Origin: a virus
DNA: 64,000 nucleotides
Reading direction: 5' to 3' (one strand)
IMG/VR virus record: IMGVR_UViG_3300009425_004205
Coordinates: 14,463-78,462 of that record
Shown here piece after piece: positions 5,432-25,390 of this stretch. A program made the translations under genes and the position numbers. Every line of letters starts with the position of its first letter. Positions within the stretch are counted from its first letter, which is position 1. The notes beneath the pieces were generated by a model. The model was not told the DNA's origin and searched no databases. It saw nothing but the letters and a program-made list of their open reading frames with translations.

Positions 5432-5505
5432 GGACCTCTAGCTCAATTGGTTAGAGCATCCGGCTCATAACCGGGAGGTTCACGGTTCAAGTCCGTGGAG
5501 GTCCA
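5432..5505 (+). tRNA. tRNA-Ile2 (anticodon CAU, lysidine substrate)
   Basis: Cloverleaf: GGACCTC/GAGGTCC acceptor stem, D-arm GCTC..GAGC, anticodon loop CTCATAA, T-loop TTCAAGT, discriminator A. C4:G69 and C5:G68 pairs, a paired G1:C72 and the adjacent tilS favour Ile2 over Met/fMet. Confidence 0.88.
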
Positions 5506-5529
5506 CTATACTATAATAGGAGAGCTGTA

Positions 5530-6153
5530 GTGAAATATGATTGGATATCCGAGTTGGGAGAAGATAAGAAGAATACTTCTGAAGCTGAGTCAAAAGATGC
5601 ATCGGCAACTGCAAGTCATAATGTCGTAGATATTGTAAATAACAGAATATATTTTTACTCCTCAGTTGATAAATTGAGGGTACTTAAACTAAACAAAGCA
5701 ATCCATAGCTTAGGAATAACCCTTTGTCAAAGAGCTGCGCACATGAATACAGAACCGCTACCAATAGAAATATTAATTAATAGTTTTGGAGGAAGCGTGT
5801 TTTCAGGATTTGCAGCAGTAGACTATATTTTGAATGCAAAAGTTCCTGTAATAACAACCATCGATGGCTGTGCAGCCTCAGCAGCTACGATGATGAGTGT
5901 CGTAGGGACTCACCGAAAAATGAATAAGAATTCTTTTATGCTAGTTCATCAGTTGTCTAGCGGCATGTGGGGAAATTTTAGGCAGCTTAAAGACGACATA
6001 GAGAACTGCGAACTTTTAATGCGAAAGATAAAAAACATTTATAGGGAGCATACAAAAATTCCAAAAAGGAAGATGGATGAAATACTTAAACATGACTTAT
6101 GGTGGGACTCTACAACGTGCTTGAAGTATGGATTAGTCGACGAGATAATTTAA
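5530..6153 (+). CDS. ClpP-like serine protease
   Basis: INSFGGSVFSG, GCAASAA (Ser), MVHQLS (His), HDLWW (Asp) and YGLVDEII. Confidence 0.88.
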   Translation: MKYDWISELGEDKKNTSEAESKDASATASHNVVDIVNNRIYFYSSVDKLRVLKLNKAIHSLGITLCQRAAHMNTEPLPIEILINSFGGSVFSGFAAVDYILNAKVPVITTIDGCAASAATMMSVVGTHRKMNKNSFMLVHQLSSGMWGNFRQLKDDIENCELLMRKIKNIYREHTKIPKRKMDEILKHDLWWDSTTCLKYGLVDEII

Positions 6154-9220: not shown

Positions 9221-9889
9221 ATGAAAAACTATATTAAAAGTTCTAGAAAAAGAAAACAACGAATGATGGGGGATGTATTAGTTATAGAGAAAGATCCTTT
9301 ACCGACGTCAGTGGACATCGAAAAGGTATTAGTATCAGTCCAAGCTTCAGTACCGAAGAAATTTCTTAGAAGACTTGACTCTATATATATTGGGAAGTTT
9401 AAGGACTTAGAAGATAGAAGTTTAAATGCTATGTATAGTGATGGAGCGATTTACGTCACTAATAATCAAGCATCCGTCGAAGACATCACGGAAGATATTG
9501 TCCACGAGGTGGCACATGCGATAGAAGATGAAATTTCTTCGGAAATATATTCGGACGGCAGTATAGAGTCAGAATTTCGTGGAAAAAGAGAAAGGTTATA
9601 TTTTATGCTAAAAGAAGAGGGGCATGATGTTGAGTTGGCTAATTTATTGAATCTAAATTATTCTAAAATTTTTGATTCCTTCTTATATAACGAGGTTGGG
9701 TACCCAATGTTGTCTGCTATTACTGTTAACTTGTTCTACTCTCCCTACGGGGCAACTTCTTTGAGCGAATATTTTGCTAATTGTTTTGAGGCATACTTTC
9801 TCAAAAGAGATTTGCAGAGGGTTAAGAGAATAAGTCCTAATGTGTTTGCAATATTAGAAAAAATAAGTTATAATGAGGAGGAAGAATAA
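9221..9889 (+). CDS. Putative zinc metallopeptidase (HEXXH)
   Basis: IVHEVAH plus a downstream EYFANCFEAY third-ligand-like motif. Confidence 0.65.
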   Translation: MKNYIKSSRKRKQRMMGDVLVIEKDPLPTSVDIEKVLVSVQASVPKKFLRRLDSIYIGKFKDLEDRSLNAMYSDGAIYVTNNQASVEDITEDIVHEVAHAIEDEISSEIYSDGSIESEFRGKRERLYFMLKEEGHDVELANLLNLNYSKIFDSFLYNEVGYPMLSAITVNLFYSPYGATSLSEYFANCFEAYFLKRDLQRVKRISPNVFAILEKISYNEEEE

Positions 9890-11144: not shown

Positions 11145-12401
11145 ATGCAAGAGAAAAAAAAGATAATAACAATATCGGATAGCCCATATTCTCCATCTGG
11201 AGTTGGCATGCAGACTAGATACATGATAGAAGCTTTACTGGCTACAGGTAAATACACTATTGTGTCTCTTGCCGGCGCTATAAGACACAACGACTACTCC
11301 CCTATCAAAAGCCCAGAACACGGCGCGGACTGGGTGACATACCCAGTTGACAACTACGGATCTGAAGAATTAATACGATCGTTAATGATAAACGAGAAGC
11401 CAGACGTCGTCTGGATAATGACAGATCCTAGATTTTGGACTTGGCTGTGGGCAATGGAGAACGAAATAAGAGAGAAGTGTCCGTTGGTTTATTATCATGT
11501 CTGGGATAACTACCCATATCCAAAGTATAACAAGACATACTATGATTCTAACGATTTAGTTGTGACAATAAGTAAAGTTACTGACGATATCGTCCGGACA
11601 GTTTCTCCTGACGTGGAGTGCAAACACTTGCCACACGCTGTACCGTCTAATATTTTTTATAGCAGGGAATTGGTAGACACCGGTGTCATAAACCTCAAGG
11701 AGAATACAATTAAGGATAGATTTGTTTTCTTTTGGAACAACAGAAATGCTAGAAGAAAGCAAAGTGGATCTTTAATATTCTGGTTTAAAGATTTTTTAGA
11801 TATTGTTGGACATGACAAGGCAGTGCTAATTATGCATACCGAACCGAAAGATCCTAATGGGCAAGATTTGGAAGCCATACTATCCGAGCTTGAACTTACA
11901 AATGGAGAAGTGATGATATCTACTGTTAAGACTTCCACAGACAGGCTAGCAGACTTGTATAACATGGCAGACTGCACTATTAACATTTCAGACGCCGAAG
12001 GTTTCGGCTTGGCTACTCTCGAATCTCTCTCCTGCGGCACTCCAATCATCGTCAATATGACAGGCGGCTTGCAAGAGCAAGTCACTGACGGCGTTAATTG
12101 GTTCGGAATAGGGCTAGAACCCGCCTCTAAGGCTATTATCGGCTCACAGAGTGTACCGTACATATATGAGGATAGAGTCGCTAAGAAGGACGTTCTAGGG
12201 GCTATGCTGAAGATATATAACATGAGCGAGTCTGAGCGAAAAGAGATGGGAGAGAAAGGCAGGGCACATGTTATTAAGAATTATGGGTTTGACACTTATG
12301 CTAAGACGTGGAACAATATCTTATCTGAAGTTATGGAGAAACATGGATCCTGGGATAGCAGAAAGAATTATAAGGGATGGGAGTTAAGAGAGGTATCATG
12401 A
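11145..12401 (+). CDS. Glycosyltransferase, GT4/GT-B fold
   Basis: SDSPYSPSGVG, NRNARRK, LYNMAD and EGFGLATLESLSCGTPII. Confidence 0.9.
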   Translation: MQEKKKIITISDSPYSPSGVGMQTRYMIEALLATGKYTIVSLAGAIRHNDYSPIKSPEHGADWVTYPVDNYGSEELIRSLMINEKPDVVWIMTDPRFWTWLWAMENEIREKCPLVYYHVWDNYPYPKYNKTYYDSNDLVVTISKVTDDIVRTVSPDVECKHLPHAVPSNIFYSRELVDTGVINLKENTIKDRFVFFWNNRNARRKQSGSLIFWFKDFLDIVGHDKAVLIMHTEPKDPNGQDLEAILSELELTNGEVMISTVKTSTDRLADLYNMADCTINISDAEGFGLATLESLSCGTPIIVNMTGGLQEQVTDGVNWFGIGLEPASKAIIGSQSVPYIYEDRVAKKDVLGAMLKIYNMSESERKEMGEKGRAHVIKNYGFDTYAKTWNNILSEVMEKHGSWDSRKNYKGWELREVS

Positions 12402-14509
12402 AAAAAGTATTAATAGAAGCGCCAATATTAACACAATCTGGCTACGGAGAACATTCAAGGTTTGTATATAGATCCTTGCGCGAAAGAGACGACGTTGATA
12501 TTCATATACTTCCTTTGGATTGGGGATCTACTAGCTGGTGCACAGAGATAACTGCCGAAACGAAAGAGATAGAGGAGCTTATTAAGAAAACTGCTGTGCA
12601 TACTGCAAATAATGAAAATCCTCAATTTGATGTGCACATCCATGTTGGCATACCAAACGAGTTTGAAAGGAAGGCGCCATATGCAGTTCATGTTACTGCG
12701 GGAATAGAGACTACGAAGATTTCGAAAGAATGGCTAGCAAAGACATTTGAGATGGATAAAATAATCGTACCATCTGAACATGCTAAGTGGGCTTTCGAGA
12801 ACACTTCCCACAAGGCTGAAAAAGAAGGAAAGACAATAGAAGCAAAGTGTCAAACACCGGTAGAGGTAGTCCCATACCCAGTGCGCGATTACTCCAAGGA
12901 TAATGACTTTAATTTAGACTTGAAACATGATTTCAATTTTCTTTCTGTTGCGATGTGGTGCGAGCGGAAGAACATGGATAACATGATAAACTGGTTTGTG
13001 GAGGAGTTTAAGGATGAAGAAGTGGGGTTAGTACTTAAGACAGCTTTTTCTAGGGGATCCCTCATAGATAGAAATATGATGCATCGCAAGCTCAAAGCGG
13101 TTCTTGAGAAACATGGAGACAGAAAGTGCAAGGTGTATCTGTTACACGGCAATTTGAGCAATGAGGAAATGAAGTCTCTATACACTCATAAGAAGATAAA
13201 AGCCATGGTGTCTGCAGCACATGGGGAAGGTTTTGGGCTTCCTTTGTTCGAGGCTGCATGTAACGGCATGCCAATAATCGCGCCGGCGTGGAGCGGTTAT
13301 CTAGATTTTCTGCGAGCTTCGGTATTGGAAGGAAAGAAAGGGAAGAAAACAAAAAGGATGAGAGACTTCTTTGCGAAGGTTGAATATTCTATTCAACCAG
13401 TACAAAAATCAGCAGTATGGAATAACATTATAATTCCAGAATCAATGTGGTGTTTCCCGCGTGAGCCTAGCTTTAAAAATCAATTAAGGAATGTATATAA
13501 TAATTATTCAACGTATAAAACCATGGCTCAAAAAAATAAGAGAAGAGTATTGCAAGAGTTCGCGAAAGAGACAGTAATGGAGAAGTTGTCTTTAGCGTTG
13601 GTGGCTCCTACTGTGATGCCTGAGGCTGAAGTAGTCTTTGTTAGTGATTATTTTCAGCATCAACTAACTGGTGGTGCTGAGATGTCCTTGCAGGCATTGA
13701 TAAACGCATCCCCAACTTCGAAAGTCATAGGGATAAACTCCTCTTCTTTGGGAAAAAAGCAGATAGAGTTCTACAAGGACAAGCGCTGGGTGTTCGGAAA
13801 CATCGCAAACTTGAAAGAAGGTGTAATGTCCTTAATGGAGGAGAATAAGATTAAATATACTTTTGTAGAGTTCGATTATAAGTTTTGTAAGTATCGGAAC
13901 CCAGCATTATATGAAATGATGGAAGCAGAAGAGTGCAAATATTCAGAAACAATTCTGGCACAGAAGTTGCAAAATTTTATAAATGGAGCGGAATCTGTGT
14001 TCTTTATGTCTGACAACCAAAGAAGGATTTACGAGAATTCTTTAGAAAACGTAGATTTTAAAAAGTCTCATGTGTTATCTTCCTTATTCGACGCAGAGTT
14101 TTTTCAAAGAGTGGAGTCGTTAAATAAGAAGTATGAAGGCAAGAAGAATGGAAAGTGGATAGTGCTTGGATCAGAGAGCTGGGTTAAGGGCGCTGCCGAG
14201 TCAGAGGCGTGGTGTAAAGAACACAACAAATCATACGAGGTGGTGAACGGGCTCGATCCGCTAGACTTTTTAGAAAAGTTGGCAGAATCAGAAGGTGTTT
14301 GTTTCAAGCCAGTAGGCTTAGATACCTGTCCTAGATTTATCATCGAAGCAAAGCTTCTAGGATGTAAACTTGAATTGAACGAGAATGTACAACACCGCGA
14401 CGAGGGTTGGTTCAATACATCTGCGGAGGAGATGAAAGAATATTTGCAATCGCGATCGTCTTTTTTCTGGGAGAAAGCATTTCCAAAATGGAACAACATT
14501 TCACTATAA
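12398..14509 (+). CDS. Two-domain glycosyltransferase (GT4 plus a second GT-B-like module)
   Basis: SGYGEHSR, ERKN and HGEGFGLPLFEAA in the first half; GGAEMS and DTCPRFIIEAKLLGC in the second half; ATGA overlap with the upstream gene. Confidence 0.88.
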   Translation: MKKVLIEAPILTQSGYGEHSRFVYRSLRERDDVDIHILPLDWGSTSWCTEITAETKEIEELIKKTAVHTANNENPQFDVHIHVGIPNEFERKAPYAVHVTAGIETTKISKEWLAKTFEMDKIIVPSEHAKWAFENTSHKAEKEGKTIEAKCQTPVEVVPYPVRDYSKDNDFNLDLKHDFNFLSVAMWCERKNMDNMINWFVEEFKDEEVGLVLKTAFSRGSLIDRNMMHRKLKAVLEKHGDRKCKVYLLHGNLSNEEMKSLYTHKKIKAMVSAAHGEGFGLPLFEAACNGMPIIAPAWSGYLDFLRASVLEGKKGKKTKRMRDFFAKVEYSIQPVQKSAVWNNIIIPESMWCFPREPSFKNQLRNVYNNYSTYKTMAQKNKRRVLQEFAKETVMEKLSLALVAPTVMPEAEVVFVSDYFQHQLTGGAEMSLQALINASPTSKVIGINSSSLGKKQIEFYKDKRWVFGNIANLKEGVMSLMEENKIKYTFVEFDYKFCKYRNPALYEMMEAEECKYSETILAQKLQNFINGAESVFFMSDNQRRIYENSLENVDFKKSHVLSSLFDAEFFQRVESLNKKYEGKKNGKWIVLGSESWVKGAAESEAWCKEHNKSYEVVNGLDPLDFLEKLAESEGVCFKPVGLDTCPRFIIEAKLLGCKLELNENVQHRDEGWFNTSAEEMKEYLQSRSSFFWEKAFPKWNNISL

Positions 14510-15222
14510 TAATACCAGCTTACAATTGCGAAAAGTGGGTTAAGAAAAATTTAAATTCTGCATTAAATCAGGAATATACGAATTACGAGGTGATATATAT
14601 CAATGATTGTTCGACTGATAACACTGGAAATGTCGCCGGCAAAATGTTATCTGACTCGCGAGTTGCTAGCAGATATATAGAGAATAAAGAAAACAAAAGA
14701 GCATTACCTAACCTAGTAAGAGCAATAAACGAAGCTACTCCGGGCACCATAGTCCTTGCTTTGGACGGTGATGACTGGCTAGCCAACAAGGGGGTACTTA
14801 AAAGACTCAACGAGCTTTACACGTCCGACATATGGATAACCTCGGGTTCCTATATTGACAATGTGCACCACAACATCAGTCGTCCAAAGATACAAGTTGG
14901 CTTTTGGGAGCAGAATATTAGAAAGGTGGACTGGACATTGTCGCACCTTAGGACGTTCAGAAGGAGCCTTTTCTTAAAAATTAAGGAAGCTGATATGATG
15001 GACGTCGATGACAGTTATTTTAAATTTACGTGGGATCGTGTTATAATGTATCCTATGGTAGAGATGGCTGGCGAGAGACACTTTATGCCAATAATGGAAG
15101 TCATGTACGTTTATAATAGAAGAAACCCCATATCGGTTGATAGAACCCATCGTCATGATCAGATAAGAATCGAATATATGCTTCGAGATAAAAAACCGTA
15201 CGAAAAAATAGAAAATTTATGA
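14488..15222 (+). CDS. Glycosyltransferase family 2
   Basis: IIIPAYN, INDCSTD and LDGDD (DxD). Confidence 0.92.
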   Translation: MEQHFTIIIPAYNCEKWVKKNLNSALNQEYTNYEVIYINDCSTDNTGNVAGKMLSDSRVASRYIENKENKRALPNLVRAINEATPGTIVLALDGDDWLANKGVLKRLNELYTSDIWITSGSYIDNVHHNISRPKIQVGFWEQNIRKVDWTLSHLRTFRRSLFLKIKEADMMDVDDSYFKFTWDRVIMYPMVEMAGERHFMPIMEVMYVYNRRNPISVDRTHRHDQIRIEYMLRDKKPYEKIENL

Positions 15223-16118
15223 ATTTATTATTAGATAATGTTGACGTCAGCTCAACGTCTGGCCCAAACCACTTTGGAAAAAAGCTAAAAAAGTATCTGA
15301 AGAAGAAAGGTGTTAAATTCGACAGTACTAAGAAGCCAGACATACAGCTTTCTTTTATAGAGTCTCGCAATGTGCTGCCACAGATTCCTATAATTCAGAG
15401 ACTCGATGGAATATACTTTAATAAGACATTTGATTTTGGAAAGCAGAATTCAAATATTCTTAGTACGTACAAAGGCGCCAAGGGGGTTGTGTTCCAAACA
15501 GATTTCAACAGGAGATTGACATTTCAATATTTCGGATATCATGAAAACTCAACAGTAATAAGGAACGGAGCTGATATGGAGTTGATATCAGAAGTCGAGC
15601 CGCTAAACAATGAACTGCTAGCTAGATATGAAAATGTCTGGTGTTGCGCTTCTTCCTGGCGCCCACACAAGAGATTAGAAGATAATATTAAATATTTCCT
15701 AAAGAAATCAGACAATAACGATTGTATGGTTGTTGCCGGTACAACAGACAGAGTAATTGAGCATGAAAGGGTGTATTATGCTGGAAACCTTCCAGTGGAG
15801 AAACTTTTGTCTCTTTATAAAACATCGAAATACTTTGTTCATCTCGCATGGCTCGATCATTGCCCAAATGTGGTTGCCGACGCGAGAGCTAGCGGGTGTG
15901 AAATAATATGCTCATCCACCGGAGGTACAAGAGAAATTGCGGGCCCTAATGCCCGTATTGTTATGGAAACGGAGTGGGACTTTTCTCCCGTAGACTTGTA
16001 TGATCCTCCGAAAGTAGACTACAGTTACTCAACGATTAACGGCGTAATCGGCGACAACAGTGTTGATATGACGTCGGTTTCTCAAAAATATTATAATTTC
16101 TTGGAGAAAAACATATGA
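15219..16118 (+). CDS. Glycosyltransferase, GT4-like
   Basis: SSWRPHKRL, DHCPNVVADARASG and GGTREI. Confidence 0.82.
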   Translation: MNLLLDNVDVSSTSGPNHFGKKLKKYLKKKGVKFDSTKKPDIQLSFIESRNVLPQIPIIQRLDGIYFNKTFDFGKQNSNILSTYKGAKGVVFQTDFNRRLTFQYFGYHENSTVIRNGADMELISEVEPLNNELLARYENVWCCASSWRPHKRLEDNIKYFLKKSDNNDCMVVAGTTDRVIEHERVYYAGNLPVEKLLSLYKTSKYFVHLAWLDHCPNVVADARASGCEIICSSTGGTREIAGPNARIVMETEWDFSPVDLYDPPKVDYSYSTINGVIGDNSVDMTSVSQKYYNFLEKNI

Positions 16119-16981
16119 AAACAATAAAAGGCTTGCTTTATGAGCCAGGGGTTAGTGTTTTGTGTGGCTCTTACAATGCAATGATAGCAAAGTTAGCCGA
16201 AAACGCAGGCTTCGATGGAGTTTGGCTATCCAGCTTTGAAATGCATGCATGGAATCGATTTCCTGACGCCTCTATTTTAAACGTTGCAGACTATTCTGAC
16301 GCGATAAGTAAGATAAGTGATAGGATCAACGTACCAATATTGGTAGATGCAGATGAGGGCGGCCCTAGCGCTATAAACACTATTAGGATGGCTAGAGAAT
16401 ACTCGAAAGCCGGAGCCTGGGGCATGTGCATCGAGGACAACCCTTCTCCAAAACGATGTTCTTTTTACGGAATGAAGATGGATTTAGAAAAGACAAGCAT
16501 AATGGTTGGTAAAATAAAAGCTGCCATAGAAAAGAGCGGCAAAGATAATTTCGCAGTTATTGCAAGAACGGAGTCGCTAATACAGGGGCACGGATTCGAC
16601 GTAGCAATCGAAAGAGCCAAGGCGTATACTGCAGAAGGCATTGATGGCTTCCTAATCCACAATAAAGACAACACTCCAGAGAATGTATTAAGATTTGCAG
16701 ACATGTATCACGCGGCAGGTATGACAACTCCACTAGTTTGTGTACCGACTACATATAACCAAGTCACTGTTAAGCAATTAGGCGAAGCGGGGTTTAGCAT
16801 GGCTATATATGCCAACTATTCAGTAAGAGCGGCAGTGAAGGCGCTTGAATCCATGTTCGAAAAAATGATAACTGGTGGCAGCCTATCTGCAGGAAACGAG
16901 GATGTTGTGCCTATGAGCAAGATATTTGACTTAATCGCGGTAGAAGAGCTTAAGGAAAATCAAAAGAAGTATGGCTCCTGA
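16115..16981 (+). CDS. pepM: Phosphoenolpyruvate mutase (ICL/PEPM superfamily)
   Basis: GFDGVWLSS, PDAS, ILVDADEG, IEDNPSPKRCSF, IARTESLI, ERAKAY, LIH, PLVCVPTTY and IYANYSVRA. Lies directly upstream of Ppd and AEP transaminase genes. Confidence 0.82.
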   Translation: MKTIKGLLYEPGVSVLCGSYNAMIAKLAENAGFDGVWLSSFEMHAWNRFPDASILNVADYSDAISKISDRINVPILVDADEGGPSAINTIRMAREYSKAGAWGMCIEDNPSPKRCSFYGMKMDLEKTSIMVGKIKAAIEKSGKDNFAVIARTESLIQGHGFDVAIERAKAYTAEGIDGFLIHNKDNTPENVLRFADMYHAAGMTTPLVCVPTTYNQVTVKQLGEAGFSMAIYANYSVRAAVKALESMFEKMITGGSLSAGNEDVVPMSKIFDLIAVEELKENQKKYGS

Positions 16982-17369
16982 AGATGTCTACAACTATGCA
17001 ATAGGCATAGGCTGCAATTTCTTTACAGGTGTACCAGACAGCCTTTTGAAGGAATTCCAAAATAAAATAATCAATTCAGGATATACTAATGTTATAGCCA
17101 CCCATGAATCTCAAGCTGTAGCTATAGCCTTTGGTGCCGAACTGGCAGGCAAGAAAGCGTGCGTCTATATACAAAATTCTGGGCTTGGAAATGTTATAAA
17201 CCCGCTAACAAGCTTGTGTATTCCGTGCGGAGTAGAACCACTTATTGTAGTAGGCCACAGACACACGCTCCAACAACACAGGGTAATGGGCGAGATTGAT
17301 GAGGAGCTTTTAAACCTTGTAGGGTATAAGAATTACGTAATTGTTGCTGGGAATAACAATGTTAAGTAA
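16971..17369 (+). CDS. Phosphonopyruvate decarboxylase, alpha (N-terminal) subunit
   Basis: FFTGVPDSLLK, HESQAVAIAFG, YIQNSGLGNVINPLTSL and QHRVMG. Confidence 0.88.
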   Translation: MAPEDVYNYAIGIGCNFFTGVPDSLLKEFQNKIINSGYTNVIATHESQAVAIAFGAELAGKKACVYIQNSGLGNVINPLTSLCIPCGVEPLIVVGHRHTLQQHRVMGEIDEELLNLVGYKNYVIVAGNNNVK

Positions 17370-17835
17370 AGAAGACGCTATAAAGCATATATTTCAAAAG
17401 CATGGGAAAGACTCATTGTTCGTTACAAATACTGGATATATATCCAGAGATGTATATGATCAGTTTCCTACTAGCAGAAATATATTTTATATGCAGGGAA
17501 GTATGGGACTATCTCCCTCGATAGCTCTTGGTTTAGCGATGAATACTCACAGGGATGTCATCGCCCTTGTCGGCGACGCCTCATTGTTGATGCATTTAGG
17601 CATAACACACACGATAAGAGATATGAAATTATCTAACCTCTATGTCTATGTCCTCGACAATGGATGTCACGAGTCGGTTGGAGCTTACCCCTGCTCAGAG
17701 TTGGAAGATAGCTATCCCGGAATTCATGAAGTCATTAAGATAAGGGTTTCGAAGAAAAATAGTAGGGTGGCAATCACGCCTATCGAGAATGTTCTTTTGT
17801 TCAAGGAGTTCATTAATGCAAAAGATTCTTCTTAA
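17359..17835 (+). CDS. Phosphonopyruvate decarboxylase, beta (TPP-binding) subunit
   Basis: NTGYISR, FYMQGSMG, and TPP motif GDASLLMHLG...LDNGCHESVG. Confidence 0.88.
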   Translation: MLSKEDAIKHIFQKHGKDSLFVTNTGYISRDVYDQFPTSRNIFYMQGSMGLSPSIALGLAMNTHRDVIALVGDASLLMHLGITHTIRDMKLSNLYVYVLDNGCHESVGAYPCSELEDSYPGIHEVIKIRVSKKNSRVAITPIENVLLFKEFINAKDSS

Positions 17836-18856
17836 TCCCGGCCCAACGAACACAAGTTTTTGGACTAAGTTTAGTCAGTGGTTTGGTAGCGATGTTTGCC
17901 ATCGGACTGATAAATTTTCAAAAGATTTTTCCACACTCCAGTCTTTATTGCTGGCAAGGTACGGCGACATAGATGTGAACATCGCGATTATGGGAGGCTC
18001 TGGCACTTTGGCTTTGGAGTCTATGATATCTACCTTGTGTCCGGATAACACTCTGTTCATCAACGCTGGCTCGTATGGGAAGAGGGCACTGGAGATAGCC
18101 GCTAGATATTCTATTAAATGCTCCTACCTTGAGTGTAGGCAATTGGAAGATATGAAAGTGAATAACAACGCTAAGCATGTATATTTCGTAGAAAACGAAA
18201 CAAGTACTGGAGAACACTTTTCTTTAGCTAAAATGTGTGATATTTATCCGAATGCAAAGTTCTTTATTGATGCAACCTCTTCTTTCGGAGCTAGTGATTA
18301 TTCTGGATTTCATGACAGAATTGCAGCAATATCGTTTTGTAGTAATAAATGTTTGCAGTCAACGCCAGGTTTGGGAGTTGTTCTCTGGGGTAAACATTGT
18401 GAAACTAGGGTTGGGAGTTATTATGGGGATTTGAGTCGCTACGGTGAAGGTAAATTGCCGTTTACTATCCCAGTGCAGTCTGTTTATGCACTTATCAGCA
18501 CCCTCGAGCGAGGGAATAATAACAAACAGTTATTCGATAGAAGGAGAGGATTAATAATACGGGAATTTCAAAGCATAGGAATAGATTGTTTAAATCAGAA
18601 TCCCTCGAATTCGATAATCGCCTTCAGACATCCTTACATGAATTACAATCAGTTAAAAGATTTTTTATATGATAGGGGAATCGTGATATACTCTGGTATA
18701 GCTAACGAAAAAAATAGCTTTAGATTGTCGACTATGAGCACTAAGTTCGATAAAAGTTTCAGGAAGATTAGGAGAGCATTCAATGATTCGTGTGTACACA
18801 GATATGGCTGCCGACATGTTTCATGTTGGCCATTTAAATTTGATAAAAAGGGCTAA
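17816..18856 (+). CDS. 2-aminoethylphosphonate aminotransferase (class V PLP; PhnW/AepZ-like)
   Basis: LLNPGPT, DVCHR, GSGTLALE, YGKR, ETSTG, IDATSSFG, SNKCLQS (PLP Lys), FTIPVQ, GIVIYSG and SFRL. Confidence 0.85.
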   Translation: MQKILLNPGPTNTSFWTKFSQWFGSDVCHRTDKFSKDFSTLQSLLLARYGDIDVNIAIMGGSGTLALESMISTLCPDNTLFINAGSYGKRALEIAARYSIKCSYLECRQLEDMKVNNNAKHVYFVENETSTGEHFSLAKMCDIYPNAKFFIDATSSFGASDYSGFHDRIAAISFCSNKCLQSTPGLGVVLWGKHCETRVGSYYGDLSRYGEGKLPFTIPVQSVYALISTLERGNNNKQLFDRRRGLIIREFQSIGIDCLNQNPSNSIIAFRHPYMNYNQLKDFLYDRGIVIYSGIANEKNSFRLSTMSTKFDKSFRKIRRAFNDSCVHRYGCRHVSCWPFKFDKKG

Positions 18857-19202
18857 AGAGTTCGGAGAATACTTAATAGTGGGGGTACACTCTGACAAAG
18901 CTATGGAAAAGTATAAAAGAAAGCCAATAATTCCTGAAGAAGAGAGATATCAAATTATTGAAAGTTGTAAGTACGTTGATGAAATAGTGAGAGGAGCACC
19001 TCTAGTCATGAATGAGGGATTTATCATCAATAACAGTATAGATTTAGTTGTCCGCGGCGACGATATAACGGAAGAGCACCTTAGGCAGCAAAGTGTCCCA
19101 ATAAATATGGGAATAATTAGATATGTTCCAAGGACTCCTGGAATCTCTACTAGTGGAATAATAAAGAAAATAGAGGAGAGAATAAAACATGATAGTAATT
19201 AG
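18783..19202 (+). CDS. Cytidylyltransferase (HxGH, TagD/ECT-like)
   Basis: DMFHVGHLNLI, LIVGVHSD, KRKPI, CKYVDE, RGDD and RTPGISTS. Confidence 0.92.
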   Translation: MIRVYTDMAADMFHVGHLNLIKRAKEFGEYLIVGVHSDKAMEKYKRKPIIPEEERYQIIESCKYVDEIVRGAPLVMNEGFIINNSIDLVVRGDDITEEHLRQQSVPINMGIIRYVPRTPGISTSGIIKKIEERIKHDSN

Positions 19203-19890
19203 TTCAACCGGCGGCAGTGGATCGAGCTTTGTAGCTGATCAGTTTTCTATGAACCATTGGAAAGTTTGTCTTCGGCCAGATGGGGGACAACAGAAAGCAA
19301 CACACTCAGAAAAACAAATTTATGATGAAAGAACTATCCCGCACTTTGAATCTCTTTTAGGGAAAAAGCCAAATCAGGAGCAGATGTTTGAAGAAGCTTA
19401 TGTGAAATTAAGAAAAGCGAAAAATGACAATTTAATGTTATTATGTATGACTTGGGGAGGCTTGGGATATTTGAACAATATTGAGGAAAAGACAATATTT
19501 CTAGTAAGGGATCCTGTATTCGCTTTTAACTCATACTCCGGCGGTGGATGGAGAAAGGAGGGAGGACAGCGCCGAATAAAGTATGTCGGAGCATCTGGCG
19601 CCAATGATAAGAAGTGGATAGACTTATGGTTGGGGAAGTTTGCGCATTGGAAGCAGGGTGCGCTACATGCTATTAATTCAGCAAAAGAAGGCAATGGCCA
19701 CCTTGTCAGATATCACAGCTTTGCAAAAGACTGGGAAAAGATAGAAGGCGTCCCACCGATACATAAAAATTTTAAAAGCAAAGATGAAATACTGAAACTT
19801 CAGGGCTTTCTGTCCGCTGAAACTATAAAGTACATTAGAGAAGAAACAAACGATGTCTGGAAGGAAATCAAGTCGTTTAGTCATGAGTGA
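19189..19890 (+). CDS. Sulfotransferase-like protein
   Basis: N-terminal SSTGGSGSSF (5'-PSB-like loop), IFLVRDP..AFNSY (3'-PB-like) and LVRYH. Confidence 0.55.
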   Translation: MIVISSTGGSGSSFVADQFSMNHWKVCLRPDGGQQKATHSEKQIYDERTIPHFESLLGKKPNQEQMFEEAYVKLRKAKNDNLMLLCMTWGGLGYLNNIEEKTIFLVRDPVFAFNSYSGGGWRKEGGQRRIKYVGASGANDKKWIDLWLGKFAHWKQGALHAINSAKEGNGHLVRYHSFAKDWEKIEGVPPIHKNFKSKDEILKLQGFLSAETIKYIREETNDVWKEIKSFSHE

Positions 19891-21502
19891 TGAGTTTATA
19901 GGTAGGAAAAACAACACTCTAGGTGTTAATGATCTCAGAAAGTATTTAGCTAACAAAAAGGAGACTTCGAAACAGAAAAATCTCCTCATTAAGTTGGAAG
20001 AATATGTAGAGTATAAAGCTCCTAAGGAAAATGTCAAAGTTTTATTAATATCTCTTCCAATAACTATACCAAAATATATGCAGAAAAGATGTATACCTCC
20101 ATTAGGAATATCATATATCGCTGCCTCCCTAGAAAAGAATAAAATAGATGTTGATATCATCGATTGTTGTGTAGAAGGCTGGGATATAGAGAGATATAGT
20201 GGAAATATGGTTACATATGGCATACCACCATCACAACTTGGAGAAAGACTAAAAGAAGTAAATCCAGATATAGTAGGAATAAGTCTTTTGTTTTCAACAG
20301 ATATGAAGAACTTATATGAGGTAAGTTCGGTAGTGAGAGAAAGCCTCCCGAACACAACAGTCCTTGTTGGGGGGTTACACCCAACAATATACCCAATTGA
20401 AATGTTCGAATTAGATTTAGAGCAAAATAAGAGGAGAACTATAGATTTTGTGCTAAGGGGAGAAGGCGAGGAAAGGCTGGTTGAGTTTGTTGGGGATTTA
20501 GAGAATGGTGTTGTAAATATTAACGCTGACGGCTTAGTCGGATTTGTGGGTGATAAATTTATTTACAATGAACAGGTTGAAAACATAAAAGATTTAGATT
20601 CGATACCATTTCCTGCGTACCACCTGCTTCCGATGGAGAAGTATTTCAATATTAATGTTCCATTTTCGCCAGTACCACAGGGAGACAGGGTTTTACCAAT
20701 GTTGACAACTAGAGGCTGTCCAGTTGGTTGTACCTTTTGCGCAAATACAAATACTTGGTGGAAACATAGAAAAAGATCTGTTGCGAATATAGCTGAAGAA
20801 GTTAAGTACCTTAAGGACAATTTCCAAATAGATGAGTTGCAGTTTGCTGATGATAATTTAACTTATGATATGAAACATGCAATTGAAAAGTTCAAAGCTA
20901 TAAAGGAGTTTGATTTACTGTGGTGTACCCCAAACGGAACAATGATTAATAAACTAACAGAAGAACTGATAACTATTATGGCAGAATCAGGGATGTATCA
21001 AATAACTTTATCAATGGATAGTGCCGTGGCAAGAACTTTGAAGGAGTTACATCACAAGCCGGTAAATTTGAACACCATACCTGGATTGATAAAAAGGTGT
21101 AAAGAGCTGGGTGTGTTTGCTCATGGTACATTAGTAGTAGGCATGCCTGGGGAAACGCTGGAAGAGATTTCTGAAGGATTCGAATATGTAAAGAATGATC
21201 TTGACTTTACAAGTGTTTCTGCTTTTATTGCTGCCGCCATCCCCGGCTCTGAGCTTTATCATGATATGCTGGACTCTGGAAAAATATCGAAAGAAGACGC
21301 TCGCGAAATTGATACAACGAAATCTAAGATATCACTATCTAATATAGAACCAAAGGCATTAGAGGACATGATAGAGACGTTCCAATCAGAATTTCTCGAG
21401 ATAGTGAAATACAGAGATCCGGAAGAGTATCAAAGAAAATACTCTAAACTAATAAAATCTGGCAGGTGGGATGAAGATCAATGCGGAGGAAAATTAACAT
21501 GA
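19883..21502 (+). CDS. Cobalamin-dependent radical SAM enzyme (class B)
   Basis: PPLGISYIAA, PDIVGIS, VGGLHPT and GEGEE (B12-binding domain); TTRGCPVGCTFC (CxxxCxxC), FADDNLT and GMPGET. Confidence 0.92.
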   Translation: MSDEFIGRKNNTLGVNDLRKYLANKKETSKQKNLLIKLEEYVEYKAPKENVKVLLISLPITIPKYMQKRCIPPLGISYIAASLEKNKIDVDIIDCCVEGWDIERYSGNMVTYGIPPSQLGERLKEVNPDIVGISLLFSTDMKNLYEVSSVVRESLPNTTVLVGGLHPTIYPIEMFELDLEQNKRRTIDFVLRGEGEERLVEFVGDLENGVVNINADGLVGFVGDKFIYNEQVENIKDLDSIPFPAYHLLPMEKYFNINVPFSPVPQGDRVLPMLTTRGCPVGCTFCANTNTWWKHRKRSVANIAEEVKYLKDNFQIDELQFADDNLTYDMKHAIEKFKAIKEFDLLWCTPNGTMINKLTEELITIMAESGMYQITLSMDSAVARTLKELHHKPVNLNTIPGLIKRCKELGVFAHGTLVVGMPGETLEEISEGFEYVKNDLDFTSVSAFIAAAIPGSELYHDMLDSGKISKEDAREIDTTKSKISLSNIEPKALEDMIETFQSEFLEIVKYRDPEEYQRKYSKLIKSGRWDEDQCGGKLT

Positions 21503-22182
21503 AGAATTTAACAGAAGATGAGGTAAGGAAACTAAGTGGCATGCCTGACGCGGCGTTTAACCAACATGTCCTATGGGACAGCACGGGACTCAACCCGGAC
21601 AACTGCAATAAAATCTTGTTAATATACAAGAAAGTTGTCAATCATTTTGATATCAAGTACTGGCTTACTTACGGTACGGCTCTAGGATTTTACAGATCTG
21701 GTGATTTTATTCCATGGGATGATGATATCGACAGTCACATAGACGGACATAAAATGTTAGAAGTTGGGGTAGAGAATATTAGGCAGAAATTTATAGATGA
21801 GGGGGTTGTCGTACGATCGAAAGAACGAGGGCTGAATAGTAAGATGAGCCTTTTCTATGGAGGGGTTAAAATGCAATTGCAGGGGGTGTACGAACAAGAC
21901 GGAATGATGCATGCAAAGTTGTTTCATTATCCAATCGAGTTTTATAATAACTCCCAAGTGTTTCAATATCGAGGAGAAGAGTATACCTTGCCAGGGCCGC
22001 CTGACAGGTATTTGACGTTTTGTTATGACGAGAACTGGAGTACTCCGCAAGACATAAAGGACTGGAGAGATTATATGAACCCCAAGCAGCTCAAGAGTAG
22101 AAGATGGCTTTCTGATTACGACTCTTATAATGCTAATAAGATCAAAGGAAAAAAAATAAATGATAGTAAAGAAGAGAGTTGA
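21499..22182 (+). CDS. LicD-family phosphotransferase
   Basis: YWLTYGTALGFYRSGDFIPWDDDID and P..YLT..Y..NW.TP; GGAGG RBS. Confidence 0.88.
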   Translation: MKNLTEDEVRKLSGMPDAAFNQHVLWDSTGLNPDNCNKILLIYKKVVNHFDIKYWLTYGTALGFYRSGDFIPWDDDIDSHIDGHKMLEVGVENIRQKFIDEGVVVRSKERGLNSKMSLFYGGVKMQLQGVYEQDGMMHAKLFHYPIEFYNNSQVFQYRGEEYTLPGPPDRYLTFCYDENWSTPQDIKDWRDYMNPKQLKSRRWLSDYDSYNANKIKGKKINDSKEES

Positions 22183-23035
22183 TGGATTTAATTGGACTTT
22201 GGATACATCTGATGGCGGAATAGGCATAGTTTTAGCCGGCTCTGACACTGATGGCAAAAATGCAAATTTTGCAAGAGAGAGATTGTTCATGCTCACACTA
22301 GATTCAGTCGTAACCTCCGGCATGACGTGTATTGATGTCGGGGCGAATATAGGATATGCGACAATGTTTATGGCAAGAAACTGTGGAAATCCGGAAAACG
22401 TGTATGCAATAGAGCCAGATGCTCATAACGCTAGTTTTTTAAAATTAAATTTGATAAGCAATGGTTTCGAAAATTGCAATACAAGTGATCTTCTAATATC
22501 GGACACAAATGGGGAAAGAGATTTTTGGATAGCCAGGCACCCAAACTTAAATAGCGTTAGCAAAACAAAGCATAGTATTAGGAAAGAAAGGGTTCGAAGT
22601 GTTACCCTAGAAACCTTCTGTAAGGATCAGAATATATATCCAAATTTTATAAAAATGGATATTGAGGGACACGAGGTTGATGTATTTAACGGGGCATATA
22701 ACTTCTTTAAAGAAAACGAGGGAGAGACTCATTTTTTGCTCGAAGTACATCCAAAAATGTATAATAGCGAAAATGATTTTGCTAAAACTTTAAAGCGTTA
22801 TGAAGGTATAGGGTTCAGAGTTAAGCTTTTAATTGCAACTCCAGTGTCTAACCCTGCCCCATTTAAAAAGTTGGGGTACAAACCAGTATTGCAAGTGCCA
22901 TCTGACGGCTGGATTAGGAGTATCTATGTTGACGTGGACAATGATGAAGCTATCAGGATATGTACCAGTTTACACGCCGATGTTCCTGGTGGGAAGTCTG
23001 TCCGCGCAATCCTGGTATCCAGGGAGGGGCAGTGA
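22160..23035 (+). CDS. FkbM-family methyltransferase
   Basis: IDVGANIGY, YAIEP and FIKMDIEGHE. Confidence 0.9.
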   Translation: MIVKKRVDGFNWTLDTSDGGIGIVLAGSDTDGKNANFARERLFMLTLDSVVTSGMTCIDVGANIGYATMFMARNCGNPENVYAIEPDAHNASFLKLNLISNGFENCNTSDLLISDTNGERDFWIARHPNLNSVSKTKHSIRKERVRSVTLETFCKDQNIYPNFIKMDIEGHEVDVFNGAYNFFKENEGETHFLLEVHPKMYNSENDFAKTLKRYEGIGFRVKLLIATPVSNPAPFKKLGYKPVLQVPSDGWIRSIYVDVDNDEAIRICTSLHADVPGGKSVRAILVSREGQ

Positions 23036-23907
23036 GAGTACTAGTTACAGGACACAAGGGCTACATAGGTAGTCATCTATTCGAGAGGCTTAAGCTGGAG
23101 GGTTATGACGTTGCTGGTATCGATTTAACTGGGTGTATTCTCGACGGGAAAGAACTACCAGGTGAAAATATATGTGATGGATATCCAGTAGAGTATTATC
23201 AATTCATGCCAGAGTTCATATTTCATTTAGCAGCCATCCCCCGCGTTGGATATAGCGTAGCTAATCCTGTGGAGGTAATGGAAAACAATATTATGTGTAC
23301 AGCGAAGACTTTAAGATTCGCTAAGGTTGCCAAGTCATCATTAATATATTCGAGTTCATCTTCTGTGGAAGGTAACGGCGCCGGCCCCACAAATCCCTAC
23401 GCGTTGTCTAAGTACGTAGGAGAGTTAGAGTCTGTCATGTATAACGATTTATATGATGTGCCGACTGTAAGTCTGAGATATTTCAATGTCTACTCTCACG
23501 ATCAGAAAGCAGAAGGAACATATGCTACTGCTGTCTCAAATTGGATGGAATACATTAGGCAGAATAGGCCGCCGTTTATAACTGGAAGTGGAAACCAAAG
23601 AAGGGATATGGCACATGTCGATGACGTAGTAGACGCGAATATGCATAGTATGAAGAACATGCCTCACTTGAGGGGTAGAGTGTTCGACGTCGGTACAGGA
23701 GATAATATATCTTTAAACGAAATGAGGGACATAGTTCTCGAGGTTTTTCCTGGCTTGCGGTTCGAATATAAGTCCGGCCGCCCTGGAGAAGTAACAGAAA
23801 CAAAAGCAAATATTAAAAATTTTAAAAAAGCCGGCTGGAGTGGTAAAATACCTATCAAGGCCGGAATAAAAGAGTGCTTTGAAAGACTAAAAGGAGAAAT
23901 ACAATGA
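23032..23907 (+). CDS. NAD-dependent epimerase/dehydratase
   Basis: VLVTGHKGYIG, FHLAA, YSSSSSV, YALSK, LRYFNVY and RDMAHVDDV; GTGA overlap with the upstream stop. Confidence 0.9.
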   Translation: MRVLVTGHKGYIGSHLFERLKLEGYDVAGIDLTGCILDGKELPGENICDGYPVEYYQFMPEFIFHLAAIPRVGYSVANPVEVMENNIMCTAKTLRFAKVAKSSLIYSSSSSVEGNGAGPTNPYALSKYVGELESVMYNDLYDVPTVSLRYFNVYSHDQKAEGTYATAVSNWMEYIRQNRPPFITGSGNQRRDMAHVDDVVDANMHSMKNMPHLRGRVFDVGTGDNISLNEMRDIVLEVFPGLRFEYKSGRPGEVTETKANIKNFKKAGWSGKIPIKAGIKECFERLKGEIQ

Positions 23908-24355: not shown

Positions 24356-24672
24356 CTATTACTATGGTGTTTCTAATAGTGTCCGGAATCATTAATGTTT
24401 TTGCGGCGCTATACGTCCGATGGCTCCTGAGTACTATGTCAGAGTTTTCAGAAAATCTTGAAACTCTTTGGGCGAATCTGGCAGGGTTCGAGACTCACGT
24501 CGACGCTATTCATGAATCTGAAATGTATTATGGAGACAGTAGTTTACAAGAGCTTATGAGTCACTCCAAATCATTAATGGCAGAAATTGTCAGCATTAAG
24601 GATATACTGCCAACATCGGCAGAATATACCTTACAAGAGGAAGAGGAAGAGGGGGAAACTCAAGATGGCTGA
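24352..24672 (+). CDS. Hypothetical membrane-anchored protein
   Basis: N-terminal hydrophobic helix followed by an acidic coiled region. Confidence 0.6.
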   Translation: MTITMVFLIVSGIINVFAALYVRWLLSTMSEFSENLETLWANLAGFETHVDAIHESEMYYGDSSLQELMSHSKSLMAEIVSIKDILPTSAEYTLQEEEEEGETQDG

Positions 24673-25390
24673 AATGTCCGAGCAGATAAGAATTCGTTCA
24701 CGAAGAAAGAAGAAAAAGAATGATTATTTCACGAAAGAACATGAAGCAGCGATAATAAGATATGTCGCGACAGATTGCATAAAAGAAAGGACAGTGTTGT
24801 ACGTAGAGTGGATACAACCAGCTTTTGATGAGATGGTAGATAAAATAATCTACACTTATAAATTTACCACCCTCCCAAATATTGATGCCCTCAAGGACGA
24901 ATGTAAAGTCTGGCTGACGACTATCCTAGATAAATTTGATGCATCGAAAGGATCCAAAGCCTTTTCATATTTTTCCGTCGTTACCAAAAATTGGTTTATC
25001 CACAGAGTCAAGAAAAATTCTGCTCGCACAAAAAAAGAAGTATCTTATGAGGAGATGGTTGAACTTGGCAAGCCAGGGGTGACAGAGGTTATTTCTACGG
25101 AAGAGACATACTTGGAAAAAAGAATGGACGCTGAATTCTGGAGATTGTTGTTGACGCAAGTAGATAAGTGGGACGTGGATACCCTAAAAGAGAATGAAAA
25201 GAGGGTACTGGAGGCTGTTAAAATACTACTGAATAACGTTGAAAACATAGATATCTTCAACAAGAAGGCGGTATATTTATATCTCCGAGAAATAACGGGA
25301 CTAAATACAAAGCAAGTTGTTAGTAATCTTAATAAGATGAGAGAGAAATATAGACTTTTTAGGAATAAATGGGATAGAGGCAACCTTTAA
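24665..25390 (+). CDS. Phage sigma factor (gp55-like, probably late transcription)
   Basis: LDKFDASKGSKAFSYFSVVTKNWF resembles sigma regions 2.3-2.4; C-terminal LYLREITGLNTKQV is HTH-like; it sits just before the virion genes. Confidence 0.7.
   Translation: MAEMSEQIRIRSRRKKKKNDYFTKEHEAAIIRYVATDCIKERTVLYVEWIQPAFDEMVDKIIYTYKFTTLPNIDALKDECKVWLTTILDKFDASKGSKAFSYFSVVTKNWFIHRVKKNSARTKKEVSYEEMVELGKPGVTEVISTEETYLEKRMDAEFWRLLLTQVDKWDVDTLKENEKRVLEAVKILLNNVENIDIFNKKAVYLYLREITGLNTKQVVSNLNKMREKYRLFRNKWDRGNL

Follow-up and report, generated by a model that had tools for sequence, protein, structure and literature searches.

Can a tailed phage make, activate and transfer a phosphonate of its own? The question is raised by a 64,000-nucleotide stretch of viral DNA (positions 14,463 to 78,462 of IMG/VR record IMGVR_UViG_3300009425_004205), which we call the window, where enzymes of carbon-phosphorus (C-P) bond formation lie among glycosyltransferases in one gene block. 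An earlier interpretation made without database searches, here the sequence-only reading, had concluded that the virus builds its own phosphonoglycan. We compared the window with related loci (numbered with L) and records (numbered with G; G000 is the window's own). Positions 11145-23907 hold, as had been described, 14 successive plus-strand open reading frames (ORFs) with zero gaps between neighbours. The earlier gene list proved correct by Pfam and NCBIfam searches and, for one protein, a fold model: four glycosyltransferases (GTs), a phosphoenolpyruvate (PEP) mutase, alpha and beta parts of a phosphonopyruvate decarboxylase (Ppd), a transaminase, a cytidylyltransferase, a sulfotransferase-like (ST-like) protein, a radical S-adenosylmethionine (SAM) enzyme, LicD, FkbM and an epimerase. 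Judging from these sequences, we consider it likely that the operon builds a glycan, makes 2-aminoethylphosphonate (AEP), activates it with CMP, perhaps methylates it, and attaches it. The idea of a viral phosphonoglycan is upheld by the viral setting and by a conserved mutase-Ppd-transaminase-cytidylyltransferase set in a GT island; it is less well borne out in the signature of the mutase, in the link of three neighbouring genes to the phosphonate, and in the virion as target.

A conserved five-gene core in a variable phage island

The core (module A) comprises a PEP mutase-like enzyme with a variant gating loop (PepM, 16115-16981), the N-terminal (PYR) half of a Ppd (PpdA, 16971-17369), its C-terminal half, which binds thiamine pyrophosphate (TPP) (PpdB, 17359-17835), an AEP-type class V aminotransferase (AEPT, 17816-18856) and a small cytidylyltransferase of 139 aa (CTase, 18783-19202). 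Module B follows it in window-type loci and consists of the 233-aa ST-like protein (19189-19890), a B12-binding radical SAM enzyme of the SD_1168 (Sden_1168) family (19883-21502) and a LicD-family phosphotransferase (21499-22182). Module A has the same order and the same slot in all IMG/VR relatives with enough sequence. In related viral contigs the slot is bounded at one end by a PD-(D/E)XK nuclease gene plus two GT4 genes, and at the other by three small phage genes that are conserved. The slot itself is constant, whereas its contents differ among relatives.

A survey of viral and metagenomic contigs found the same synteny on at least four independent marine contigs. The order PepM-PpdA-PpdB-AEPT-CTase-ST-like-radical SAM-LicD-FkbM-epimerase, then phage genes o24352 and o24587, is kept on L050 (64 kb), L052, L054 (a Tara scaffold) and L072 (38 kb), and parts of it on L049 and L051. 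Since the radical SAM genes of the four are only 67-70% identical to that of the window, they represent different phage species. Across the eight genes tested, synonymous change was saturated (pS 0.70-0.98) and pN was 0.15-0.46, with the lowest value in PepM; the five-gene core is under strong purifying selection.

Core enzymes of a predicted route from PEP to CMP-AEP

PepM matches PF13714 with 134.3 bits (cut-off 31.5) over model positions 8-239 of 240. Its best PDB match is PEP mutase 5UNC (6.7e-58), followed by phosphonopyruvate hydrolase (3.5e-43) and lyases (1e-25 or weaker). Grouping with methylisocitrate lyase or phosphonopyruvate hydrolase was checked and not seen, PEP mutase being best by both hidden Markov model (HMM) and PDB match. 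The residues corresponding to Mytilus D58, D85, D87, E114, K120, S123, R159 and H190, which we take to be the metal and substrate ligands of PEP mutase in that numbering, are all kept in HMMER alignments to 1M1B and 5UNC. PpdA begins 11 nt before the PepM stop, and the PepM-Ppd order is invariant in relatives.

For both Ppd halves, the best NCBIfam match is TIGR03297 (phosphonopyruvate decarboxylase), with 99.5 bits at model positions 1-123 for PpdA and 92.6 bits at positions 170-286 for PpdB. The halves stay below the single-chain cut-off because the gene is split, and it is split into the same two ORFs in all relatives. TPP_enzyme_N scores 23.6 bits on PpdA, below the Pfam cut-off of 26.8, and TPP_enzyme_C 39.4 bits on PpdB. 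PpdA has an HE glutamate, presumably the one that activates the cofactor, and PpdB a GDAS...LDNG stretch that we take to be the TPP motif.

The best family for AEPT is TIGR03301 (PhnW-AepZ), at 149.7 bits against a cut-off of 360.8. Its top five PDB matches are 6PD1 (a Treponema denticola nucleotidyltransferase-aminotransferase fusion, which we believe to come from work on the bacterial Pnt pathway compared below), 1M32 (PhnW), 9KK8, 9KKA and 7E7G, and alignment to them shows that AEPT keeps the conserved SNK Lys, presumably the lysine that binds pyridoxal phosphate.

The CTase belongs to PF01467 (CTP_transf_like, 75 bits) and carries the motifs HVGH (HxGH) and RTPGISTS (RTxGISTS). Its PDB matches are led by human ethanolamine-phosphate cytidylyltransferase (ECT; 3ELB, 1.4e-38), ahead of choline-phosphate cytidylyltransferase (CCT, 1e-20) and the cytidylyltransferase (CyTase) domain of Fom1 (5X3D, 1.2e-14); glycerol-3-phosphate cytidylyltransferase is also among the matches, behind 3ELB. 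It is not of the PF12804 type (MobA/LicC-like NTP_transf_3) to which PntC, the cytidylyltransferase of the Pnt pathway, belongs, and is predicted to work like PntC without being a member of its family. Phosphoethanolamine is the phosphate-ester isostere of AEP. Given that the closest solved relative of the CTase acts on a substrate isosteric with AEP, formation of CMP-AEP is the natural reading.

Glycan genes and organization of the block

Upstream of module A lie a GT4-type glycosyltransferase (11145-12401; PF00534, 47.7 bits, above cut-off), a 710-aa protein with a GT4-like domain at residues ~244-320 and a long uncharacterised C-terminal part (12377-14509; PF00534, 29.4 bits against a cut-off of 26.4), a GT2 glycosyltransferase (14488-15222; PF00535, 75.6 bits) and a GT-B (Glycos_transf_1) glycosyltransferase (15219-16118; PF00534, 28.5 bits, above cut-off). 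The first has copies 59-63% identical in the same slot of L002, L005 and L008-L011; the 710-aa protein is 46-48% identical to its copies in relatives, and the GT-B enzyme 52% to that of L002. Downstream of module B, the block ends with an FkbM-family SAM methyltransferase (22160-23035; PF05050, 63.2 bits; TIGR01444, 87.5 bits) and an NAD-dependent sugar-nucleotide epimerase or dehydratase of the short-chain dehydrogenase/reductase (SDR) type (23032-23907; PF01370, 128.8 bits).

Start sites were picked from in-frame start codons, purine-rich stretches upstream and the points where relatives' alignments begin. The ATG at 14488, for example, is preceded by GGAGAAAG and the GTG at 23032 by GGGAGGGG, and the first GT4 ORF opens at 11097, with the alignment to relatives beginning at residue 17-23. 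With the chosen starts, neighbours overlap by 3-25 nt; the sole exception is the 74-nt AEPT/CTase overlap, which was found again in L002. The 14 genes are probably a single operon with translational coupling. Scans for sigma-70-like promoters, for terminators and for the T4 late motif TATAAATA gave no more sites than expected by chance, so expression timing is not readable from the sequence. In a hydropathy scan with 19-residue windows, none reached 1.6 in 13 of the 14 proteins, and GT4b had one borderline window. Thus, the block shows no convincing membrane helix, and family searches found no flippase, polymerase or priming transferase among its 14 genes.

Proposed pathway and acceptor

The sequences show which genes are present, that they are conserved, that they lie in a virus and that catalytic residues are kept. 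On this footing we propose the following route, each chemical step of which is a prediction. The four soluble glycosyltransferases, the SDR epimerase and the FkbM methyltransferase would assemble and tailor a short glycan in the cytoplasm of the infected cell. PepM would convert host PEP to phosphonopyruvate, the split PpdA/PpdB would pull the reaction on to phosphonoacetaldehyde, the class V transaminase would turn this into AEP, and the ECT-like CTase would make CMP-AEP. The SD_1168-family enzyme would probably methylate the (cytidylylated) phosphonate in the manner of Fom3, the B12 radical SAM enzyme that C-methylates CMP-2-hydroxyethylphosphonate. LicD would then move the phosphonyl head group onto the glycan, and the ST-fold protein may add sulfate.

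The acceptor could be a virion protein, or a lipid-linked or surface glycan of the host. The lack of a convincing membrane helix in the block, and of genes for a flippase, a polymerase or a priming transferase, fits a cytoplasmic acceptor of whatever identity. The sequence-only reading had favoured the virion. We found no direct support for this, the only pointer being the soluble proteins together with the same three missing functions.

The tripeptide [S/T]GS is enriched in three ORFs that follow the gp6-like wedge gene consecutively (42411-44678, 44675-55111 and 55124-56047), with 7, 15 and 3 occurrences against 1.7, 5.0 and 0.2 expected; in each, 0 of 500 shuffles reached the observed count. 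It is usually preceded by a hydrophobic residue. No such enrichment was found in 21 other proteins tested (the other giant ORF has 3 against 2.6 expected; the GT2 has one site, reached in 19 of 500 shuffles). The tripeptide could be a glycosylation sequon or merely a fibre repeat. No Ser/Thr-rich tract, as in a mucin-like acceptor, was found in the downstream structural proteins.

The pathway may also run as proposed with a product that remodels the envelope of the infected host (a lipid-linked precursor, lipopolysaccharide, capsule or S-layer glycan), the purpose being to block superinfection, to blunt grazers or enzymes, or to alter lysis or adsorption; we regard both the target and these purposes as possible, at clearly less than even chances. 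The island adjoins early or metabolic-type genes (PhoH, nuclease, ClpP, PurA) outside the head and tail modules, its content turns over fast between close relatives, as arms-race surface traits would, and the GT2 and GT4 matches resemble exopolysaccharide and O-antigen enzymes. Cell-surface phosphonoglycoproteins have moreover been proposed as protection against phages and grazers (bioRxiv 10.1101/2020.11.04.368217). However, a block without flippase, polymerase, priming transferase or membrane protein would have to rely fully on host export during a lytic cycle, and the 78-kb contig offers no evidence of lysogeny.

In its boldest form, our proposal is that phages of a widespread marine T4-like clade decorate virion proteins with an aminoalkylphosphonate glycan of their own making, methylated and possibly sulfated, with the three [S/T]GS-enriched proteins as candidates; we put this forward as a speculative and rather improbable whole. 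If true, viruses or virocells would be an uncounted source of high-molecular-weight phosphonate in the ocean, the PepM of this phage would represent a functional mutase class missed by motif-filtered censuses, and the SD_1168 family would gain CMP-AEP as a physiological substrate. The operon is a candidate example of a glycan decoration that resists nucleases and phosphatases and is made by a tailed phage.

DNA hypermodification was considered as another use of the glycosyltransferases and set aside: these are of the GT2 and GT4 types, and no hydroxymethylase or base-modifying gene was noticed among the larger ORFs screened on the 78-kb contig.

Module B and its probable link to the phosphonate

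The radical SAM enzyme scores 570.5 bits against NF038361, marginally (4.5 bits) under the cut-off of 575, over model positions 28-533 of 560. It is 46% identical over 92% of its length to Sden_1168 of Shewanella denitrificans OS217, has B12-binding (PF02310, 69 bits) and Radical_SAM (PF04055, 75 bits) domains, and its CX3CX2C motif (C289, C293, C296) is invariant. On this basis, it is a probable methyltransferase. The family name of NF038361 says P-methyltransferase; the AEP pathway offers no P-H phosphinate to P-methylate. A review holds that SD_1168 could methylate at either C or P and describes its physiological substrate as unknown; in a published sequence network it groups with Fom3 (PMC9204698).

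Genomic context ties this family to phosphonates. PepM lies within 10 kb in 19 of 30 cellular loci, 23 of the 30 have at least one phosphonate gene, and in Streptomyces the order is PepM, Ppd, AEPT, radical SAM. Family members fused to PF01467 or PF12804 domains exist. On other marine contigs (L057, L058, L060, L061, L077, L080, L101, L108), a radical SAM gene 63-70% identical to that of the window sits between Ppd and AEPT or between AEPT and CTase. Among loci with a radical SAM gene at least 60% identical and informative flanks, 14 have adjacent phosphonate genes and 3 have none over at least 3 kb upstream. The cellular PepM linkage, the nucleotidyltransferase fusions and the placement inside the cassette favour a Fom3-like methylation of a (cytidylylated) C2 phosphonate. 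The phage block is also a compact expressible gene set for finding the substrate of the orphan SD_1168 radical SAM family. Separately, we observed two SD_1168-family paralogues in or beside one PepM/Ppd cluster in Omnitrophota and marine loci of cellular or metagenomic origin (L013, L069 and L071); L013 and L071 have both PepM and Ppd, and L069, which is short, has a Ppd-like ORF only.

The ST-like protein has no match in Pfam, NCBIfam or PDB sequences. An AlphaFold (AF2) model of it (pLDDT 93.9) matches sulfotransferases from end to end. The Foldseek match was weak (E ~1.6e-3), and the fold was settled by the VIA wide search, whose top 15 rows are 14 sulfotransferases and a sulfotransferase-like retinol dehydratase and cover residues 1-230; the best row is 4GOX (Z 12.1, 193 residues aligned), whereas kinases cover only residues 1-190 with Z at most 9. 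The modelled fold is thus that of a sulfotransferase. Its loop STGGSGSS lacks the Lys of PKxGTT, the 5'-phosphosulfate-binding (5'-PSB) motif, and an R-x7-S spacing (R107, S115), presumably the 3'-phosphate motif, is invariant among homologues. The gene is always immediately 5' of the radical SAM gene, both in window-type relatives and in those without PepM.

LicD matches PF04991 with 40.5 bits (cut-off 22.6). Its sole PDB match is the ribitol-phosphate transferase FKRP (6KAJ), with the common block ...YWL..G..LG..R.GD.IPWD.D.D; the IPWDDDID (DxD) block aligns between the two.

The composition of the island varies among relatives. In the surroundings of module A, L002 has two LicD genes, and L042 has a DegT aminotransferase and a GDP-mannose dehydratase. 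In L005 (8551-9990), a class I SAM methyltransferase and a PhyH-family Fe/2-oxoglutarate (2OG) dioxygenase stand immediately 5' of PepM, which suggests a different tailoring of AEP, possibly hydroxylation or N-methylation, with a different transferase. Module B without PepM, Ppd, AEPT and CTase occupies the same slot in L008-L011, L053, L070 and L095, a set in which some loci are records of one and the same contig (as are L070 and L009). The relative G002, at 189,594 bp and 100% complete by CheckV, keeps the ST-like, radical SAM and LicD genes. The island of this record (L009, 10287-13756) also holds a canonical sulfotransferase, a second FkbM, an adenosine 5'-phosphosulfate (APS) kinase with a fused-on DUF2061 segment, and a small protein of the haloacid dehalogenase (HAD) type; the phages without PepM seem to supply 3'-phosphoadenosine 5'-phosphosulfate (PAPS) for glycan sulfation.

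Several of these results count against a phosphonate role for module B. The whole genome of G002 has no match to PF13714, PF01467 or TIGR03301, so module B can work without phage-made phosphonate, and in phages that lack PepM the radical SAM enzyme must act on a host-supplied compound or on a glycan. LicD was not detected in the cassette-bearing loci L004, L005 and L042, and the PF04991 match of the window's LicD covers only model positions 5-32 (~28 residues), its N-terminal motif. Module B may accordingly be a separate glycan-tailoring unit, in which the radical SAM enzyme methylates a sugar, or else a head group of host origin for which a host CDP-donor serves LicD as the source, while the phosphonate is transferred otherwise or released. 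We give this a minority share of belief. Its case is that module B is intact at the same slot where module A is absent, including in the complete G002, that it there adjoins a canonical sulfotransferase and an APS kinase, that LicD is missing from the three cassette-bearing loci, and that the substrate of SD_1168 is open in the literature (PMC9204698). The case is countered by the predominance of PepM beside the cellular family members and the fusion of some to cytidylyltransferase domains, by the insertion of close homologues inside the AEP cassette on other marine contigs, and by the ratio of 14 loci with adjacent phosphonate genes to 3 without. In sum, the PepM/Ppd/AEPT/CTase set does stand in a phage GT island beside LicD, as had been described; the tie of LicD, the radical SAM enzyme and the ST-like protein to phosphonate is likely and, with module B alone in G002, not secure.

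The variant loop of PepM

The preferred pathway, whose first step requires PepM to be a mutase, meets several obstacles. The loop EDNPSPKRCS aligns with EDKRFPKVNS in 5UNC and EDKLFPKTNS in 1M1B (HMMER alignment), and the diagnostic EDKx5NS is absent, with K116 replaced by N and N122 by C. This Cys stands at what we take to be the position of the catalytic Cys in methylisocitrate and isocitrate lyases, and KRC resembles the lyase loop KRCGH. We know of no assayed enzyme with an EDNPSPKRCS loop. PepM, Ppd and AEPT all score under their NCBIfam equivalog cut-offs; for PepM, TIGR02320 gives 219.3 bits against 319.55 (phosphonopyruvate hydrolase 155.7, PrpB 145.1). PpdB is nearly tied between the sulfopyruvate decarboxylase model (89.9 bits) and TIGR03297 (92.6 bits).

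The loop is nevertheless a stable trait of a larger group. All 120 nearest clusters (90% identity) carry it with no more than one substitution. A Cys loop occurs in 25 of the 147 sequences of our tree set (20 diverse 50%-identity representatives and 5 of the viral clade), and these fall in a clade of 51 tips, where Asn predominates at the first position and N, C, S or H stands at position 122. Some Cys-loop proteins are fusions with NTP_transf_3 (MobA-like) domains, and one is a fusion with a TPP N-terminal domain (Pfam match below cut-off). NTP_transf_3 and Ppd domains are fusion partners typical of genuine PEP mutases, abbreviated Ppm in that work (PMC6697681). With both the EDKx5NS signature and the TIGR02320 cut-off missed, we infer mutase activity from context and the retained ligand residues, and we read the Cys-loop PepM as a putative genuine subclass of mutases. 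The earlier identification thus agrees with family, context and ligand residues; it does not agree with the canonical signature and the equivalog score.

Should PepM not be a mutase, the cassette might yield a non-phosphonate amine, e.g., a taurine-type sulfonate via a sulfopyruvate-type decarboxylase, which would then be activated and transferred. The KRC at the lyase position with N122 missing, the Ppd halves at 64.6 (PpdA, alpha model) and 89.9 bits against sulfopyruvate decarboxylase models, and the failure to reach any equivalog cut-off all point this way. We nonetheless hold this to be very unlikely: PEP mutase is the top match by HMM and PDB sequence, the equivalent of His190 is kept rather than the Glu of the lyases, the lyase GH after the Cys is missing, and the Cys-loop proteins intermingle in their clade with EDN...NS proteins and occur as fusions with nucleotidyltransferase or Ppd domains. 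In addition, the transaminase and the radical SAM enzyme both come from phosphonate-linked families, and we know of no route from the PEP mutase/lyase superfamily to sulfopyruvate.

Both major phosphonate surveys filtered on EDKx5NS (PMC6697681, PMC8942020), a filter by which the Cys-loop clade would be dropped. In the phage clade at least 120 clusters (90% identity) fail it, many of them found in assemblies from Tara or other marine sources, and viral and some cellular C-P capacity may be undercounted. The phage PepM also offers a natural test of the need for Asn122 in PEP mutase.

Viral setting of the block

The contig G000 is a single IMG/VR virus record of 78,462 bp, rated 43% complete. 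Downstream of the block lie gp25 (40178-40582) and a gp6-like wedge protein (40615-42411), with PF04965 (49.8 bits), phrog_219 and phrog_6 as family matches for the pair, and the upstream flank carries PhoH, a PD-(D/E)XK nuclease, ClpP, a PP-loop enzyme, PurA and transfer-messenger RNA (tmRNA). The relative G001 (136 kb; PepM 75% identical) carries a T4 Gp23 capsid gene (192 bits); gp23 was seen on this relative only, since the window's contig is partial. The viral origin assumed by the sequence-only reading is therefore borne out, and with gp25, gp6 and gp23 we assign the lineage to uncultured marine T4-like (Straboviridae-like) myoviruses with a full genome of ~180-220 kb, the block sitting in a hypervariable glycan island. 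An assembly chimera or a misfiled host fragment, for which only the cellular ancestry of the enzyme families speaks, can be dismissed as next to impossible, given that the whole gene order with its outer and inner junctions recurs on independent marine contigs from different samples, that GC content is the same in the cluster (0.38-0.42) and its flanks, and that baseplate genes lie on the same contig and gp23 on that of a relative.

Compared by gp6, the lineage comes nearest, among cultured phages, to Microcystis phage Mel-JY01 and to Flavobacterium phage immuto (~30% identity). The cluster DNA had zero matches in 50,697 phage records, and the PepM and radical SAM proteins had distant matches only (identity at most 34%) in those cultured-phage records; the cluster is carried by no cultured relative. 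Five seawater or marine metagenome runs contain 5-7% of the sampled words, shares that fit relatives only, and no RNA run was listed.

A sigma factor had been placed downstream of the block. This found no support in Pfam, PHROGs, NCBIfam or PDB sequences: ORF 24587-25390 has zero matches in all four, and ORF 25709-27142 zero in Pfam, PHROGs and NCBIfam.

Other features of the contig

A phage-borne tmRNA (2682-2990, ARAGORN) has the tag peptide ANDNVENFEDFALAA, and a ClpP-like protease gene (5530-6153) follows ~2.5 kb downstream. A short PP-loop gene (TilS-like, PF01171) at 4800-5420 is followed after 11 nt by a tRNA with a CAT anticodon (5432-5506), called tRNA-Met by ARAGORN. Two giant ORFs of 3,461 and 3,478 aa (29747-40132 and 44675-55111) flank the gp25/gp6 wedge genes, their sole Pfam match being a concanavalin A (ConA)-like lectin/glucanase domain (Laminin_G_3), which the second carries at residues 178-352. 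The stretch from the glycan operon to the structural genes includes a gene (27148-28518) for a protein of 456 aa that ends in a GDSL/SGNH hydrolase domain (PF13472, 55.8 bits) and may be a glycan-deacetylating or receptor-modifying esterase. A 222-aa protein (9221-9889) present in all relatives at 34-41% identity has a borderline ATLF metallopeptidase match (PF07737, 27.8 bits against a cut-off of 27.4). An ORF of ~809 aa running from position 12575 of L001 to position 512 of the window has a short CTP_transf_like (HxGH) match at residues 483-515 and is a second nucleotidyltransferase-like protein on the contig.

Comparison with known systems

The bacterial Pnt pathway (Ppm, Ppd, AEP transaminase and PntC; Rice et al. 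2019, PMC6697681) follows the same logic, from PEP via phosphonopyruvate, phosphonoacetaldehyde and AEP to CMP-AEP, and likewise has LicD-like phosphotransferases and glycosyltransferases nearby. In contrast to it, the phage block lies on a tailed phage and has a stand-alone, ECT-like PF01467 CTase in place of the PF12804 PntC, an unfused Ppm with EDN..KRCS rather than EDKx5NS, and a Ppd in two small ORFs.

The early steps of fosfomycin synthesis in Streptomyces (Fom1 CyTase-PepM, Fom2 Ppd, FomC, Fom3) share with the phage a PF01467 CTase and a class B radical SAM enzyme in a PepM/Ppd cluster. Because the phage has a transaminase in place of the Fe-alcohol dehydrogenase, its pathway belongs to the AEP branch and not to that of 2-hydroxyethylphosphonate (HEP). 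It has no epoxidase, its context is glycan building rather than an antibiotic, and its radical SAM enzyme is of the SD_1168 family and not Fom3 itself. The cellular members of this family, to which S. denitrificans SD_1168 belongs, are usually found beside PepM, Ppd and AEPT.

Among viruses, the nearest parallel is an AEP neighbourhood in a metagenome-assembled genome (MAG) of a giant virus (nucleocytoplasmic large DNA virus, NCLDV), in which a virus-encoded AEP core beside sugar genes was read as making a viral phosphonoglycan, as here (Li and Horsman 2022, PMC8942020). Unlike the phage block, it belongs to a eukaryotic virus, has a Ppm-Ppd fusion and was found after an EDKx5NS filter. Its authors also scanned RefSeq viruses and 364 huge phages, and report no Ppm from a phage (PMC8942020). 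In the searchable literature we found no characterised phosphonate-making tailed phage; other finds were viral phosphonate-degradation genes and generic pathway labels. The earlier statement that no characterised phage example is known therefore holds, with the giant-virus MAG as the sole virus-encoded case found. Together, the predicted chemistry matches a bacterial phosphonyl-tailoring pathway (PMC6697681) with a Fom1/Fom3-like twist, and what the phage block adds is the SD_1168-type radical SAM and ST-like pair alongside an AEP core in a phage, pair and core forming separable modules.

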